Virus record (IMG/VR): IMGVR_UViG_3300023106_000002
Span: 1 to 64,000 of that record
DNA length: 64,000 nt
Source: a virus
Direction: 5' to 3' (one strand)
A program made the translations under genes and the position numbers. Position 1 is the first letter of the stretch. Each line of letters opens with the position of its first letter. Below are positions 57,341 to 62,296 of this stretch, in pieces. Below the pieces are notes generated by a model, which was given only the letters and a program-made list of their open reading frames with translations, ran no database searches and had not been told where the DNA came from.

Positions 57341-58645
57341 TCAGAAAGGAAGTGGTTCTTCCTCTGCTGTATTATTTGTCATATTTTGCTCTTCTCTGAC
57401 AGCTTCTTGAATAAATTCATCAAGTTCTTGCTGTTGATTAACTTGTACTGGTGTATCAGATCTTTCTGAGGATGGAACTGTGTATGTATCTGCACCCATA
57501 GTATATCTTCCAGTTTCACTAACTCTGAGTCGATCAATTTCTGATTCACCCATAGTAAGAATTGTACTTGTACCAACTGAACTTGAATTCCAAGTAATAC
57601 TAGAACCATTTGCCATATCAATAGTTGTACTACCAGTAGCAATACTATGTTCTGTATCATCAATCAATGTTACATCACTAGCTAATTCTATTGGAAAAGG
57701 TCCTGATTCTTCTGTGAAAGTGATTCCAAAGTCATCATCATTGACTGATGTTACTACTGGATCAGGATATTCAAGTTGAACACTTTGTTGATACATACCT
57801 GATAATGCTTCTCTTATACGAGCAGGATCAACACTAGCATCCAAATCTACAGAAATGCTTTGTACTTCAGTATCTTCTGTTGCTGGTACAAAATGAGTAT
57901 CTAAGCTTGGATTAATGTTACGAAAGTCAATTGCATTCACATCCATTACTGCGATACGAGGAATATGAACTTTCATGTGAAGTAACAATTCATTCAATGA
58001 AGCATAATCAACTTTGAAGTTATTAGAAAAGCAAAGTTTTTCAATTTTACTACTACTCATATAACGTACTTCAATCTCTTGTTGATATGCTTTTTGAATG
58101 TAATCTTTCTCAAACTTTACCCAAAACTTCTTGTATTTTTCTGAAGTTGCTAACTCAGTTGATACAAGCATGACAAGTTTCTTCAAACCTTCATCATGTT
58201 CTGCATCAATATAGACATTCTCTCCATTTTCTCCTCTTGTTCTTGTAGGATTAGTATAAACTATATCCTCAGGTTTTCTCATACACATAGTAAAAAGAAC
58301 ATTGCTCTCCTTATCAGTAATATAAAACTTACCAGCTACTAAAGAAGTATGAGTGACTCCTTTTGTATCACTTAAAATGATTTGATGCAATGATTGATGT
58401 CCATTGAAAACTTCTACAAACCTTTCATAAGTAGTGTATTTCCTATTGTTTAAAAAATCAGGTTTAGGTTTATGCCACGATCTCATCAATACATTTTCAT
58501 ACCTGCTACCAATAGTATTAGCACGATAAATGTTTTTAATATTTTGCGCATTGATTATTGGTATAAACTTCGATCCAACAGTTGCCCCTATTTTAAAAGG
58601 ATCGAACTTAAATGTGTTAGCAAAGTCCCACGATAACTTTATCAT
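57341..58645 (-). CDS. Unknown protein coupled to E1; acidic tail ending EEEPLPF
   Basis: Starts 2 nt after the E1 stop; globular N-half, low-complexity acidic C-half. Confidence 0.6.
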   Translation of the reverse strand: MIKLSWDFANTFKFDPFKIGATVGSKFIPIINAQNIKNIYRANTIGSRYENVLMRSWHKPKPDFLNNRKYTTYERFVEVFNGHQSLHQIILSDTKGVTHTSLVAGKFYITDKESNVLFTMCMRKPEDIVYTNPTRTRGENGENVYIDAEHDEGLKKLVMLVSTELATSEKYKKFWVKFEKDYIQKAYQQEIEVRYMSSSKIEKLCFSNNFKVDYASLNELLLHMKVHIPRIAVMDVNAIDFRNINPSLDTHFVPATEDTEVQSISVDLDASVDPARIREALSGMYQQSVQLEYPDPVVTSVNDDDFGITFTEESGPFPIELASDVTLIDDTEHSIATGSTTIDMANGSSITWNSSSVGTSTILTMGESEIDRLRVSETGRYTMGADTYTVPSSERSDTPVQVNQQQELDEFIQEAVREEQNMTNNTAEEEPLPF

Positions 58646-58647
58646 AA

Positions 58648-59334
58648 TTATATCTCATTGTTAGTAAGACTTAACGGGATGAAGAATTCATAATAGAAAG
58701 GTACATCTCTATCTTTACTTCTTTCATATATGTTAGTCATGTGGTTAGTAAAAAACGCTGTCATAAGTGTAGCAATCATTGCTGCACTATGTGATGTTTG
58801 TTTCATGGTACATGGTGCATCTTGCACTTCTCCATCATCAAACAAGTTCTCTTCATATTGTGAAATAAGATCAGGAGTAACGCAAAAAATCTGCAATTGC
58901 TCCATCTCAAGTCTTCCATCAATAAAGATTGGTGTAACTGGACAATTAGGTACAGACCTTTTCCACACTTCAAATAAATCTTTCCTCGCTTTCATGTTAT
59001 CGAAAGCGGAAAACATGAAGTGATGTGTTGGAGAATCTATTGTAATAGGTCGAATATCAGTATTGATACTCTTGTTATTAAACTCCATAATGACATCTTG
59101 TAAAGCTTGTACCTTAAACTTACCAATATCACTATGTCTGAATAACTGACCTCCTAAATTGTGCTCTTCGATTCTGTCAAAATCGAATATGTTTATATCG
59201 AAACCAGCACGAGTAAGGAAGATGGCTAACCAACTTCCTATACCTCCTGCTCCTCCAATCATAACTGTTTCATCTTCTTTAGGAAACCACGGGGCATCCT
59301 TGAATCTATTAAACTGTTGTAGCATTGTGTTCAA
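58648..59334 (-). CDS. ThiF/MoeB/E1-like adenylyltransferase
   Basis: IGGAGGIGS, FDFDRIEEHNL..Q, DIGKFK, AFDNMKAR, FIDGRL, candidate catalytic Cys in DAPCT (58810-58812). Confidence 0.92.
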   Translation of the reverse strand: MNTMLQQFNRFKDAPWFPKEDETVMIGGAGGIGSWLAIFLTRAGFDINIFDFDRIEEHNLGGQLFRHSDIGKFKVQALQDVIMEFNNKSINTDIRPITIDSPTHHFMFSAFDNMKARKDLFEVWKRSVPNCPVTPIFIDGRLEMEQLQIFCVTPDLISQYEENLFDDGEVQDAPCTMKQTSHSAAMIATLMTAFFTNHMTNIYERSKDRDVPFYYEFFIPLSLTNNEI

Positions 59335-60508
59335 ATTCTTTAACCATTCCGCGAATTGCTTGAACAGTAACGTTAATAAATGGGTAATCTGCTACTTTCT
59401 CTTCCAAAATATAAGCAGCTTCTTCTGAATCAACGATGAATTCATCATCTGTTGAATCAGGGAAATGCCTTTCATACACATCTGTGAAATAAGACAATGT
59501 TTTCTCAGCTAAATCATAAGCATCTATCTCTAAATCTTCAAGAGTACTTAGAACTGTATCTAAATCTTCTTTAGGTTCAAGAGGAACACTAATTTTCATC
59601 ACTTCTGAAATAAACCTTACAATAGGATCACCCATATCATTTTCTGTTAAATCTTCATAAGTAGTGAATGGAAGATTGCTGATTAAAGCATCTACCATCT
59701 TACTTCTTTCTGAAAGTTTCGATTTGTCAAGAGGAGTTTTCATCTTCTCAACAATTTTCTTCTGTTCAGGTTTCAACTGTATAACAGGTTTCTGATATGC
59801 AGGTAAAGCTTTAACAGGTTCAGGTTTTGGAGTAGGTTTAGGTTTCATAATCTCAGCTACTGCTGAAGAGAAATCTGAAGGTACTGAGTAACGTTCTTCA
59901 GGAACAATAACATCGCATTGATAAACAAATACTTTGTTTTCTTCATAGTTAAGGTCAGTAACAAAAGAGTTATAAGACTTACCATTTTCATCTAAAGAAG
60001 TATATGGTACTTTGCCAAAGTTTTTAGCAATCTTTGCTGTGAATCCAATCTTTGCTTCAAAGTCCATGTAATTGTTTACAATCAATGAAACGTAGTAATT
60101 GTGATTTGGTGCATTTTCGATTAATTCATCTTGATCTACACCTGAAAAGAAAACTCTCATGCAATGATGTGAATGAATATGACCAACTGACCAATCCATT
60201 CGTTCTTCATTTTCCATCAAGTAATCAGTAAACCTATCATCAAGAGTGTATTCAGTATATCCTGCATTCCCCATATCTAATGGTAAAATATCTTGCAGGA
60301 TAATCTTCATTGTTTCAGGTTTCTTGATAGAACCTTCAACTGTGTAAAAAAGTGGACCAGACCATTCAACAGTTCTTATGTTAGAACACAAGTGCTTCAC
60401 TTTGTTCAGGAACGCTGTTGACATTATCATTGCTATTTGACAATGCGTAAATTCCTGCACCATTGACGCAAGTTGCATAGAGGTGTATTTCGAGTTGTTC
60501 AGAGACAT
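59309..60508 (-). CDS. JAB/MPN+ metalloprotease with C-terminal extension (start uncertain: 60508, 60478, 60463 or 60430)
   Basis: Catalytic Glu in VEWSG; GHIHSHH.M..FFSGVD JAMM motif (60134-60181); SLIVNN. Confidence 0.88.
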   Translation of the reverse strand: MSLNNSKYTSMQLASMVQEFTHCQIAMIMSTAFLNKVKHLCSNIRTVEWSGPLFYTVEGSIKKPETMKIILQDILPLDMGNAGYTEYTLDDRFTDYLMENEERMDWSVGHIHSHHCMRVFFSGVDQDELIENAPNHNYYVSLIVNNYMDFEAKIGFTAKIAKNFGKVPYTSLDENGKSYNSFVTDLNYEENKVFVYQCDVIVPEERYSVPSDFSSAVAEIMKPKPTPKPEPVKALPAYQKPVIQLKPEQKKIVEKMKTPLDKSKLSERSKMVDALISNLPFTTYEDLTENDMGDPIVRFISEVMKISVPLEPKEDLDTVLSTLEDLEIDAYDLAEKTLSYFTDVYERHFPDSTDDEFIVDSEEAAYILEEKVADYPFINVTVQAIRGMVKEFEHNATTV

Positions 60509-61631
60509 AATTTAAAAATTTAGGATAAACAATACATTCCTGAAGGTTAACCTCTTCAGTAGGTTGGAGTTCTGTGATAGTGAAATAAATTCTCTTACCA
60601 CTAATATAAACAAATGGAAGTTCTCCATTTATCATCATTTTATTAAGTGTTTCTTTTGGATTGAATTGAGCACCTTGACTGATTTTGTAGAAACTTCTAT
60701 CACTACCTTGTTTACATAGTACTTGTTCAGAATGATCTTTCAGATAATCTATATAAAGGTTTTTTATACCTTCTTTAAAGAATTCATCATGTTTGATTTT
60801 AAATCTTTCTTCACTATAAACAAAGTTTGCAGGAATTGGCATACCTTCACTTCTCATCATTGCAAATAAGTCATCAAACCTATGCTGCATTCTGTCTTCA
60901 CTCATGTTGAATTTTCCTCCTGCTGCTTGAAGTACAATGTTTCTCATGTATCTAAAAGGTCTGCCTTCTTCACTCTCCCATCTAACATAGTTATCAAGAG
61001 TCATGAATAAAAGTTCAAACTTTTGAATATCAAATGGATCTGCATTGATTTCAATAGTAAGTTCACTCATATCTTCTGAACCAAGGCAGAATTCTCTCAA
61101 TTTAAAGATTTCTTCTCTCTTGTCCCATGCTGAATAAGTAGTGTTTTCAAATTCTAAGCCAGGTAAGTGACTATGTAAGTAACCATTTGACCACTCATCA
61201 TGTTTGACAGTTAATCGAGTTCCTTTCATAGTACTCAAATTAATACCTGTAATATCATAACTCAAGTCAAAATATACAAGTAAATTTTCAAGTTCTCTTT
61301 CATTACTAGTACTATTAGTGATTGTAATTTTATCATAGTTGATAATAATAGCAGGACAATAAAGTTTTCTATCTGTAACAGTCATGTGAATATCCCAATT
61401 ATCACCATAATGATTATTCATCAAAGTTATCAATTGACAAAGTTGTTCATAATAAACTGTTGCATCATCTCCTATAACTTTAGTAAATCCACGAGTACTG
61501 GTAGCAATTTTACCTTTATCAAACAACCTCTTTAACCATTTTGGATCTTTAGTAAGAGCCATTTGTCTAGCATTGTTAATGAATTGCTGTCTCCTGCTAG
61601 TAGAGTCATGCATACTATTGCTTAAATTCAT
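60381..61631 (-). CDS. Putative prokaryotic E2-like (UBC-fold) protein
   Basis: Beta-meander followed by YLHSHLP (61167-61175) and FCLG (Cys 61086-61088), then helices ending WES.EGRPF; sits between Ubl and JAB. Confidence 0.65.
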   Translation of the reverse strand: MNLSNSMHDSTSRRQQFINNARQMALTKDPKWLKRLFDKGKIATSTRGFTKVIGDDATVYYEQLCQLITLMNNHYGDNWDIHMTVTDRKLYCPAIIINYDKITITNSTSNERELENLLVYFDLSYDITGINLSTMKGTRLTVKHDEWSNGYLHSHLPGLEFENTTYSAWDKREEIFKLREFCLGSEDMSELTIEINADPFDIQKFELLFMTLDNYVRWESEEGRPFRYMRNIVLQAAGGKFNMSEDRMQHRFDDLFAMMRSEGMPIPANFVYSEERFKIKHDEFFKEGIKNLYIDYLKDHSEQVLCKQGSDRSFYKISQGAQFNPKETLNKMMINGELPFVYISGKRIYFTITELQPTEEVNLQECIVYPKFLNYVSEQLEIHLYATCVNGAGIYALSNSNDNVNSVPEQSEALVF

Positions 61632-61637
61632 ATATTT

Positions 61638-61677
61638 AAAAAAATTAAAGAGTTCCGCATATAAATGCAGAACTCTT
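61638..61677 (-). terminator. Intrinsic terminator between Ubl and E2 genes
   Basis: Minus strand AAGAGTTCTGCAT-TTAT-ATGCGGAACTCTT (one U.G pair) followed by TAATTTTTTT. Confidence 0.7.
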
Positions 61678-61687
61678 ATTAAACTTC

Positions 61688-62296
61688 TTAGTTTCTAAAG
61701 CCTCTTTCCATGTCAGCAGCTTCTTTGGCTAACCTTTTGGTTTCTGCTTCATCTGTTTCCGCTGCAATATCATCTGCACCTTTTTTTGATGCAGGTTTAG
61801 TTGAAGCTTTTGGCGCAGGAGCAACTTTAGTAGCTGTTTTCGCAGGAGTTGCTTTTTTAGCTGCTGTTGTTTTAGCAGCAGCTTTAGCAGGTGCTTTCTT
61901 TCCTTTAAAAGATTGCACTTTACCACGCAACTCTTCAATTTTCATTGAAGAGTAACCAGTATAATGCTCTTTTGCATTGTCAAATGCAGCAATGTCTTCT
62001 TTGACAAGTGCTTTCAAACCTTTTAAATCGGCTCCTGCTCCACGTTTTGCAGCCATACCTGATTTGGTTTTCTTTGGTCGCATAAATACAGTAAAAGGTT
62101 CTTCAGGTAAAGCAGCTTCTACATGGACAAGGTCAAGTTTTGACCCTCCAATAGTTGAATGTAATTGATCAACTTCGTAACCTTGTGCTTTCAACAGCGG
62201 GATAAGTCCTCCCCATGTTGTTGCATCAGATTCGATCTTCGCTTTCTTGTTACCTCTTGTTGAATAAACTGTAATTGTTCTTTTTGTTGCGCTCAT
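61688..62296 (-). CDS. Ubiquitin-like (beta-grasp) precursor fused to a basic Lys/Ala-rich tail
   Basis: Residues 1-80 show a beta-beta-alpha-beta-beta-beta pattern ending VFMRPKKTKSG; first gene before E2-JAB-E1. Confidence 0.68.
   Translation of the reverse strand: MSATKRTITVYSTRGNKKAKIESDATTWGGLIPLLKAQGYEVDQLHSTIGGSKLDLVHVEAALPEEPFTVFMRPKKTKSGMAAKRGAGADLKGLKALVKEDIAAFDNAKEHYTGYSSMKIEELRGKVQSFKGKKAPAKAAAKTTAAKKATPAKTATKVAPAPKASTKPASKKGADDIAAETDEAETKRLAKEAADMERGFRN

Follow-up and report, generated by a model that had tools for sequence, protein, structure and literature searches.

Conjugation of ubiquitin-like proteins (Ubl) has so far been studied only in cells and, for prokaryotes, in the bacterial anti-phage defence systems Bil, Bub and CBASS (Cap2/Cap3). 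Here the situation is reversed, in that a phage encodes what looks like a complete kit, and a very large clade keeps it at a fixed place among the replication genes. In the literature we found no paper describing a phage-borne Ubl-E2-JAB-E1-X cassette, X being the fifth gene, and in GenBank the cassette genes of the Crassvirales are labelled 'ThiF' and 'metalloprotease' only, the rest being 'hypothetical'. In the Bil system, a conserved glycine of BilA is exposed by the JAB peptidase BilC (PMC10557695), which matches the precursor pattern of the phage Ubl.

The window, a stretch of 64,000 nucleotides, belongs to the complete 95.6-kb genome of a crAss-like phage from leaf litter. An earlier note on this DNA had reported five co-oriented genes at 57341-62296, and all five ORFs were found there on the minus strand, among the DNA-replication genes and in the order Ubl, E2-like, JAB, E1 and X. 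The motif positions of the first four products were verified by translation, and the E1 is the only member of the cassette recognised by Pfam (ThiF, 6.7e-17). The features are the following:

61688..62296, minus strand, Ubl precursor gene, 202 aa (AF2 model, VIA, Foldseek, alignments)
62057..62071, minus strand, KTKSG motif of the Ubl, residues 76-80 (translation; homologue alignment)
61638..61677, minus strand, terminator-like hairpin between the Ubl and E2-like genes, 13-bp stem and 4-nt loop, with a T-run
60381..61631, minus strand, E2-like protein, 416 aa (model, VIA, family alignment)
61167..61175, minus strand, H153-S154-H155 motif of the E2-like protein (139 representatives)
61086..61088, minus strand, Cys182, candidate catalytic cysteine of the E2-like protein (139/139 representatives)
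59309..60508, minus strand, JAB/JAMM metallopeptidase, 399 aa as longest ORF (invariant residues, Prok-JAB, hhalign)
60365-60367, minus strand, Glu48 of the JAB, upstream of the JAMM motif (translation)
60134..60175, minus strand, JAMM motif HSHHCMRVFFSGVD (HxHx7Sx2D), residues 112-125 (translation; 35 relatives)
58648..59334, minus strand, E1, single-domain ThiF-family adenylating enzyme, 228 aa (PF00899, 6.7e-17)
58810..58812, minus strand, Cys175, candidate thioester cysteine of the E1 (52/53 sequences)
57341..58645, minus strand, gene X, 434 aa (position after E1 in relatives)
57344-57364, minus strand, EEEPLPF, the C-terminal end of X and of its acidic Ser/Thr-rich extension

The arrangement far exceeds what chance would give, as 74 of 80 independent viral loci of IMG/VR carry the first four genes in this order, the six exceptions having the appearance of contig ends. 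The order Ubl-E2-JAB-E1 recurs in crAss001, where the cassette corresponds to gp79-gp75, and in DAC15, cr128_1 and bajarodcaudo virus 1, and in every case the neighbours are primase and UDG. The conservation in crAss-like phages that had been thought possible is therefore strongly upheld by the IMG/VR loci, crAss001 and DAC15. Likewise, the fifth gene, left as 'unknown', is in fact a conserved member of the cassette, with homologues located directly 3' of the E1 gene in at least 40 of the 80 loci, often with an overlap of a few bases. Its product consists of a conserved core of about 220 aa and an acidic Ser/Thr-rich extension, the long forms ending in an SSB-like acidic tip, and is weakly linked to crAss001 gp75; the family displays no invariant residue.

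Residues 1-79 of the Ubl are modelled by AF2 as a ubiquitin fold (VIA Z 9.4, rmsd 1.9 Å over 70 residues), all 50 rows of the VIA list are ubiquitin-like folds, and Foldseek agrees with this picture. Residues 6-78 of the model align with residues 1-75 of ubiquitin, which places G80 at the position of the ubiquitin C-terminus. This domain (residues 1-80) is followed by a 122-aa tail with helices, a stretch rich in K, A and P, and, at the C-terminus, an acidic helix whose last residues are GFRN. The motif K-[TVI]-K-[SA]-G is near-universal, being present in most of 65 distinct homologues and likewise in crAss001 gp79 and DAC15; the residues after the glycine are unconserved and number from one to more than 200, and the long Ubl tails possess a conserved acidic-aromatic C-terminal tip of their own. 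A conserved glycine followed by a variable, unconserved tail is the pattern of a precursor, and G80 is the predicted mature C-terminus and cleavage site of the JAB. The Ubl gene is closed by its own terminator-like hairpin, and thus the Ubl is probably made in larger amounts than the enzymes; in 51 of 63 non-redundant loci this intergenic position likewise holds a strong hairpin followed by a T-run, of differing sequence.

The residues E48, H112, H114, S122 and D125 of the JAB (E...HxHx7Sx2D) are invariant across 35 relatives, and thus the metal site is intact, as in the Bil peptidase. Weak, sub-threshold matches to Prok-JAB (PF14464) are displayed by 31 of the 35 relatives, and crAss001 gp77 is annotated as a metalloprotease. 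The protein carries a C-terminal helical domain, and its probable start is M29, at 60424, the start used in public gene calls. In the E1, the glycine-rich motif reads GGAGGIGS, and G28, G30, G31, S34, D51, D53, N59, Q63, K74, D112, R117 and R141 are invariant in 53 relatives. C175 is present in all of these sequences except one, which has gaps only over that stretch of the alignment, and aligns with a cysteine of PRTRC ThiF and with one of the Cap2 E1 domain; the PADLOC Cap2 'E1-E2' models match the phage E1 (1e-10).

These results support three entries of the parts list in the earlier note, namely a ubiquitin fold with a Gly-terminated domain, a JAMM protease and a ThiF/E1 with a conserved cysteine, whereas the basis of the fourth, the E2, is a moderate fold match (Z 4-6, UEV/UBC/RWD) together with an invariant cysteine and the gene context. 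This assignment is the weak link of the conjugation reading. The 'HxH...CLG' pattern, presented as a signature of prokaryotic E2s, is not established as such and represents a motif of the phage family itself, in which the spacer measures 12-37 residues. The model of the protein (pLDDT 73.8) comprises a predicted UBC-like core at about residues 50-235 and a C-terminal alpha/beta domain. Both VIA lists are dominated by UEV, UBC, RWD, UFC1 and Cap2-E2 chains at Z 3.4-6.0, among them UbcH7, Ube2S, UFC1, Atg10 and the Cap2 E2 domain (7tqd_B, Z 3.4), and BubB (9eav_D) is found at Z 4.3, values of 4-6 being, by the tool's own guidance, such as may reflect a mere common arrangement. Foldseek returned no match for the model, none of 110 members is matched by a Pfam model, those of the Prok-E2 families included, a profile search of the PDB gave no link of the family to any E2, and hhalign against PRTRC-B and Cap2 was negative. 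The family is large, with 3205 clusters at 50% identity in public data, and a single scan by pattern, covering 185,579 genomes of prokaryotes, yielded no relatives. C182, S154 and H155 are each present in 139 of 139 representatives and H153 in 132, and in the predicted structure Cys182 lies on the loop joining the beta-meander to the next helix. A Bub-like oxyester route is as open for this protein as a thioester, because its family also has an invariant Ser-His pair (PMC11601596).

It is possible, if unlikely, that the cassette performs processing and activation only, with the JAB maturing the Ubl and the E1 adenylating it for transfer to a non-protein acceptor (lipid, nucleotide or DNA end), or as an activated intermediate in another replication-linked reaction, in which case the Cys/Ser-His protein would be a new kind of transferase. 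The constant position among DNA-replication genes is in line with such a role, as are the lack of a match to any E2 sequence model, the extra C-terminal domain, and two further invariant polar residues, E219 and S220, which exceed the needs of an E2; on the other hand, the predicted core is UBC-like, the gene order is that of the protein-conjugating Bil and Bub operons, and we know of no precedent for non-protein Ubl chemistry in phages. We find it quite unlikely that the cassette is a module for maturation only, comparable to that proposed for the lambda tail assembly protein I and the JAB domain of protein K, a phage precedent for Ubl plus JAB (PMC1779556). In such a module the JAB would free a chaperone or scaffold with a ubiquitin fold, along with a tail peptide that has a function, and the E2-like protein would be catalytically different or a structural partner of the UEV/RWD type. 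In fact, the UEV domain of TSG101, which is non-catalytic, gives the top fold matches of its model (Z 5.8-6.0), and the conserved tip of the long Ubl tails suggests a function for the released tail. However, an E1 in which all adenylation residues and the cysteine are conserved would then be pointless, the invariant Cys and Ser-His of the E2-like protein argue for catalysis, and some homologues have a tail of one residue, therefore the tail cannot be the main product.

A sulfur-carrier system, in which the E1 would adenylate the Ubl to form a ThiS/MoaD/Urm1-like thiocarboxylate supplying sulfur for modification of DNA, tRNA or a cofactor, is in our view very improbable. In NCBIfam the E1 is indeed matched best by ThiS adenylyltransferase ThiF models (5e-19), which also match all 53 relatives, MoaD chains appear among the fold matches of the Ubl (VIA Z 8.0-8.3), and the E1 gene is named 'thiamine biosynthesis protein' in GenBank. 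Nevertheless, these ThiF scores are far under the family cut-offs (68.7 against 159 bits), and the absence of sulfur-transfer partners, noted earlier for the window, holds for rhodanese, cysteine desulfurase (Aminotran_5) and MoaE across the whole 95.6-kb genome. Moreover, a long C-terminal extension past the glycine is unusual in sulfur carriers, and to our knowledge these are not accompanied by an E2-like protein.

The ubiquitin fold, a conserved glycine with a variable stretch behind it, the residues of the JAMM site and those for adenylation, a Cys and a Ser-His pair that do not vary, and a gene order that stays fixed are all computed observations, and based on them we consider it rather probable that the cassette is a phage-borne Ubl conjugation system built like the Bil and Bub operons. 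That conjugation occurs, what it targets and the 'lytic' lifestyle ascribed to the phage are what we infer, and the chemical steps and the biological role are likewise put forward as a proposal. The Ubl would be translated as a 202-aa precursor, and the JAMM peptidase would cut behind Gly80 (KTKSG|M), separating a ubiquitin-fold protein of 80 residues from its tail. The E1, which is small, of the ThiF type and probably homodimeric, would adenylate Gly80 with ATP and probably transfer the Ubl onto Cys175, from which it would pass to the UBC-like protein, either to Cys182 as a thioester or to Ser154, beside His155, as a Bub-like oxyester. The UBC-like protein would then join the Ubl to lysines of target proteins, possibly chosen with the aid of its C-terminal domain or of protein X, and the JAB probably also strips the tag. 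As the cassette is always beside primase and UDG, the targets are most likely phage or host proteins of the replication stage.

More tentatively, we may hypothesize that a large crAss-like clade, comprising soil, water and gut phages such as crAss001 and DAC15, runs its own Ubl tagging during DNA replication, modifying replisome partners (e.g. protein X) or host defence proteins, as a viral mirror of Bil and Bub that uses a new E2 family with both Cys and Ser-His sites. Some gut members of the clade can be cultured and have hosts in the laboratory. Should the cassette conjugate, one would ask what a bacterial virus tags, whether for replication or counter-defence, and how the phage kit is related to the host systems; a new sequence-orphan family of E2-like proteins would be added, and four or five 'hypothetical' genes of the Crassvirales would gain a function.

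Among the known systems, the ThiF/ThiS and MoeB/MoaD pairs share with the phage a small single-domain adenylating enzyme and a Gly-ending beta-grasp protein, but have no E2-like protein, JAB or precursor tails; the phage E1 is below the equivalog cut-off, and rhodanese, cysteine desulfurase and MoaE are absent from the phage genome. Type II CBASS Cap2/Cap3 resembles the cassette in its chemistry of E1, E2 and JAB. In CBASS, however, E2 and E1 form one fused protein, the C-terminus of the CD-NTase is conjugated in place of a separate Ubl, and a CD-NTase and an effector are always present, whereas the phage E2-like protein and E1 are separate genes, and no nucleotidyltransferase or effector was found in the cassette ORFs or family scans. 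The PRTRC system, or operon type 6d of Iyer, Burroughs and Aravind 2006 (PMC1779556), is also borne on mobile elements beside replication genes, following a replication initiator on the Polaromonas plasmid, and has the order protein C (Ubl), protein B (E2), protein A (JAB) and ThiF. By hhalign, the JAMM motifs of the phage JAB and of protein A can be aligned (E 0.0016), but the Ubl profile gave a negative result against protein C, and no phage protein attains the cut-off of any PRTRC model: PRTRC_ThiF weakly matches all 53 phage E1s (34.5 against 144.75 bits for the E1 of this cassette), and the other four proteins have no PRTRC match.

BilABCD (Chambers et al., PMC10557695; PMC11601596) shares with the phage cassette the order Ubl-E2-JAB peptidase-E1, observed at this locus and in the 74 loci, a beta-grasp Ubl whose conserved glycine is followed by unconserved residues, which in Bil the JAB removes, and the lack of an E3 gene, the Bil E2 being thought to select targets itself. 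In contrast, Bil tails have at most nine residues and phage tails reach more than 200, the phage E2-like protein of about 400 aa is unrecognisable by sequence, and the phage cassette adds gene X and lies in a replication module instead of a bacterial defence island. The Bil E2 has a UBC fold and a catalytic Cys; the phage family has the invariant Cys182, and UBC-superfamily chains lead its VIA lists at Z 3.4-6.0. The Bil E1 has the architecture IAD-AAD-CYS (PMC11601596), whereas the 228-aa phage E1 has one adenylation domain with its Cys in the core; the CYS and ubiquitin-fold domains that stand apart in the E1s of Bil and of eukaryotes are missing from it. Type I Bub (formerly 6E.1/DUF6527; BubAB, BubCD, BubE; Ye et al., PMC11601596) differs in fusing Ubl-E2 and JAB-E1, which in the phage are four separate ORFs with the terminator-like hairpin between the first two, in having no catalytic cysteines, its E1 using a Tyr where the phage conserves Cys175 in the E1 and Cys182 in the E2-like protein, and in its BubE, a Ser-His protease of the DUF6527 family; in X no residue is invariant, and a Pfam scan of 31 members listed no DUF6527 match. 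Nevertheless, Bub shares with the phage cassette the gene order Ubl, E2, JAB, E1 with one further gene, an E1 with a single adenylation domain, homodimeric in Bub, and a JAB that cuts the Ubl free of its downstream part, as predicted for the phage. The Bub E2 works through a Ser/His pair, and the phage family has Ser154-His155 as well as both cysteines invariant.

The window belongs to a virus record that is complete at 95,559 bp, has direct terminal repeats and derives from leaf-litter metagenomes. Giant ORFs of 4365 and about 1600 aa on the plus strand, together with the nearest cultured relatives, are consistent with a crAss-like phage. The closest of these relatives are the Flavobacterium psychrophilum phages FpV4 and Fpv1-3, with merely 73% protein identity in E1, followed by the Bacteroides phages DAC15 and crAss001 (Crassvirales, Steigviridae) with 33-37%, and a megablast search returned no match for the cassette region in phage records. 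The minus-strand block comprises, in order, a primase, a UDG, the five cassette genes, a 170-aa protein and a PD-(D/E)XK-like exonuclease. All five ORFs reported in an earlier note are present as described, and the motifs quoted for them were verified by translation:

61688-62296, minus strand, Ubl precursor (202 aa; KTKSG ends at G80)
60381-61631, minus strand, E2-like protein (416 aa)
59309-60508, minus strand, JAB (399 aa)
58648-59334, minus strand, E1 (228 aa)
57341-58645, minus strand, protein X (434 aa)

A profile search of IMG/VR yielded 80 related loci, with identities to the window protein as low as 21%. In 74 of them, HMM searches of the ORFs located Ubl, E2-like protein, JAB and E1 in this sequence and all on the same strand; for the majority of the remaining six, the position of the absent gene would coincide with a contig end or lie past it. 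In the Steigviridae the order is primase, Ubl, E2, JAB, E1, X and UDG, from which the window differs in that UDG sits between primase and Ubl. The conservation in crAss-like phages that the earlier note had thought possible is strongly supported. We consider it fairly probable that these genes constitute a phage-borne Ubl system, in which JAB would trim the Ubl precursor, E1 would adenylate the Ubl, and the latter would then pass to the UBC-like protein, to be conjugated by it to targets.

In the AF2 model of the Ubl a strand-strand-helix-strand-strand fold is followed by disordered residues 79-81 and a separate tail. An exhaustive comparison of this model with known structures gave a Z score of 9.4 and an rmsd of 1.9 A over 70 residues, with ubiquitin-like folds in 50 of 50 rows (ubiquitin, FAT10, ISG15, SUMO, UBX, MoaD) and ubiquitin 1-75 aligned with model residues 6-78; Foldseek agreed, and the beta-grasp Ubl proposed earlier is supported. 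The Ubl profile was negative against PRTRC protein C. K-[TVI]-K-[SA]-G occurs in most of 65 distinct Ubl homologues encoded on viral contigs, and crAss001 gp79 and the DAC15 Ubl have KKIKSG. An alignment of nine close homologues and FpV-type sequences contains an invariant ...F-x-x-F-x-R-...-S-G block, directly past which conservation drops off, and the tail beyond the Gly can be as short as one residue (KSGE*, KSGK*, KSGI*) and elsewhere exceeds 200. A conserved Gly followed by a variable tail is, at the level of sequence, the classical pattern of a precursor, and the same pattern is present in BilA, whose Gly was shown experimentally to be exposed by the JAB peptidase BilC (PMC10557695).

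Most of the long Ubl tails, in which nothing else is conserved, terminate in an acidic helix and then [ML]-x-x-G-[FY] or M-F, as seen in homologues of loci L014-L078, in DAC15 and in crAss001 gp79 (…EINKMFDFVD); the window tail ends in …EAADMERGFRN (61691-61780). Such an ending resembles a short docking motif, situated on the peptide that would be set free by trimming. One Ubl lineage (locus L022, 1873-2664, and the related sequence P0142) has an extra N-terminal segment repeating the first-strand motif (…RTITVVST… then …KEITVIATG…), possibly reflecting a partly duplicated beta-grasp start. The intergenic stretch that separates the Ubl gene from the E2-like gene contains a 13-bp hairpin with a T-run (61638-61677), and a strong hairpin with T-run, unrelated in sequence, occupies the same spot in 51 of 63 non-redundant loci (L011-L090). 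It is predicted to be a conserved terminator or attenuator parting the Ubl from its enzymes, and its recurrence after the Ubl gene points to more transcription of the Ubl than of these enzymes.

E1 is the sole cassette protein recognised by standard libraries (Pfam ThiF, 6.7e-17; PADLOC Cap2-type 'E1-E2' models, 1e-10; several NCBIfam ThiF/MoeB/PRTRC/6A-MBL models, with every score far under the model cut-off), and the other four belong to PHROG families of unknown function. It is a single domain, with neither a rhodanese domain nor the Cys and ubiquitin-fold domains that larger E1s have as separate units. Across 53 relatives the glycine-rich loop, both Asp of DxD, an Asn, a Gln, a Lys, DN..R and another Arg are invariant. 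Cys175 is present in 52 of the 53, the remaining sequence consisting only of gaps across that stretch of the alignment, and the Cys of PRTRC ThiF and that of the Cap2 E1 domain align with it, in agreement with the earlier identification of a ThiF/E1 with a candidate catalytic Cys. The E1s of Steigviridae possess an added, poorly conserved N-terminal extension of roughly 90-150 residues ahead of the ThiF domain (crAss001, locus L008, 7158-8309; DAC15, locus L002, 5719-6729), absent from the 228-aa E1 of the window.

At 50% identity the E2-like family comprises 3205 clusters, of which 2984 reach E<=1e-10, yet by sequence it is an orphan. Its profile was negative against PRTRC-B and Cap2 (hhalign), the ESM Atlas gave no usable result, and a single-pattern scan covering 185,579 prokaryote species, with one genome per species, found no relatives, which is not proof of absence. 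In 139 representatives S154, H155, C182, E219, S220 and P225 are invariant, H153, Y151, F181, G184 and W218 are nearly so, and the spacer from HSH to Cys is 12-37 residues long. The invariant Ser-His is significant because the E2s of Bub act via Ser333/His335 oxyesters (PMC11601596); in the phage family either Cys182 or Ser154 may be the nucleophile. The model (pLDDT 73.8) displays a long helix, a beta-meander, an HSH-bearing loop, Cys182 right before the next helix, and a separate C-terminal domain. Two VIA structural comparisons of this model returned mostly UBC-superfamily chains (TSG101/Vps23 UEV, UbcH7, Ube2K/S/W, UFC1, RWD domains, Atg10, Atg3, the Cap2 E2 domain and BubB) over 110-137 aligned residues; their Z scores of 3.4-6.0 fall in a range flagged by the tool as possibly mere common arrangement, and for this reason we regard a UBC fold as likely. 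The E2 assignment of the earlier note is the least secure: it agrees with the prevalence of UBC-superfamily chains and the invariance of Cys182, but Foldseek found nothing in the PDB for the whole model, no PDB profile matched the protein and no Pfam entry matched any of 110 members.

None of the more than 225 JAB relatives carries a precomputed Pfam domain. The JAMM Glu, HxH, Ser and Asp are invariant across 35 diverse relatives, as expected from the intact JAMM protease noted previously, and 31 of these 35 match PF14464 Prok-JAB weakly (best 0.0029). Over the motif, hhalign aligned the JAB with PRTRC protein A at E 0.0016, and an archaeal Rpn11-like chain gave a weak alignment. In GenBank, crAss001 gp77 is annotated as a metalloprotease. 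The longest JAB ORF shares 128 nt with the end of the E2-like gene (60381-60508), or 44 nt from the M29 start, as in public gene calls; overlapping longest ORFs recur in most related loci, so that JAB may start at either position and its translation may be coupled to that of the E2-like gene. In Fpv1 (locus L095, KU599877.1 65072-67877, locus 217-2509) the JAB gene is split exactly within the JAMM motif (…DWYVGH | IHSHNTM…) by an insert of about 1 kb, in which a LAGLIDADG homing endonuclease is encoded on the other strand. The insert matches no intron model in Rfam; it may be spliced out, or the JAB may function as two pieces. The same interruption occurs in several sister phages, and the FpV4 gene is uninterrupted. 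A few loci contain 0.5-1.4 kb of additional DNA in the JAB-E1 or the E1-X interval (L016 9311-10577; L063 6407-6873; L064 9057-9523; L090 8162-9585; L033 9846-11145), which may represent mobile insertions like that of Fpv1.

A homologue of X directly follows E1 in at least 40 of 80 loci, often with a few-base overlap. The family has no invariant residue and X no recognisable domain, Pfam, PDB profile and Atlas searches being uninformative; a weak link to crAss001 gp75 was obtained (hhalign E 1.7e-4). Long forms have at their end an acidic stretch followed by D-[LI]-[PE]-F (EEEPLPF in the window, 57344-57364; also noted in L011, L012, L015, L020, L029 and L032), a tip that resembles the C-terminus of bacterial SSB and is missing from short forms. 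PF00436 SSB has no match in the whole phage genome. For X as a gp2.5-type SSB the acidic, F-terminal tip is the sole support, since hhalign found no profile similarity to T7 gp2.5.

A sulfur-carrier system is a weak alternative, as it leaves the E2-like protein and JAB without a role; the earlier argument against sulfur transfer from a missing MoaE holds for the phage genome, which also lacks rhodanese and cysteine desulfurase. A module restricted to Ubl maturation fits poorly with the full conservation of E1 and with Ubl tails of one residue. The Ubl may, on the other hand, be transferred to a non-protein acceptor. The observation of the earlier note was confirmed and its interpretation partly supported, and conjugation to targets is the reading we prefer.

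No published description of the cassette emerged from literature searches on ThiF, JAB, ubiquitin and E1-like proteins in crAss-like phages; a gut-phage UBA5-like E1 receives a brief mention in one preprint. GenBank records label the genes of the cassette 'thiamine biosynthesis protein/ThiF' or 'metalloprotease domain', in one case 'E1 enzyme family protein', and nothing more specific. The putative Ubl system, which is borne by phages and includes an orphan E2-like family, is of particular interest in that cultured relatives permit direct tests.

The gene order of the phage cassette is the same as in BilABCD, BubAB-BubCD-BubE and the plasmid PRTRC cassette (operon type 6d, PMC1779556), and the PRTRC cassette of Polaromonas adjoins a replication initiator much as the phage cassette sits by replication genes. 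In contrast, the architecture of the phage E1 is unlike that of the Bil E1, the fusions and BubE of Bub are absent, and the phage proteins reach no PRTRC model cut-off; while sharing its order with Bil, Bub and PRTRC, the phage cassette belongs to none of them.
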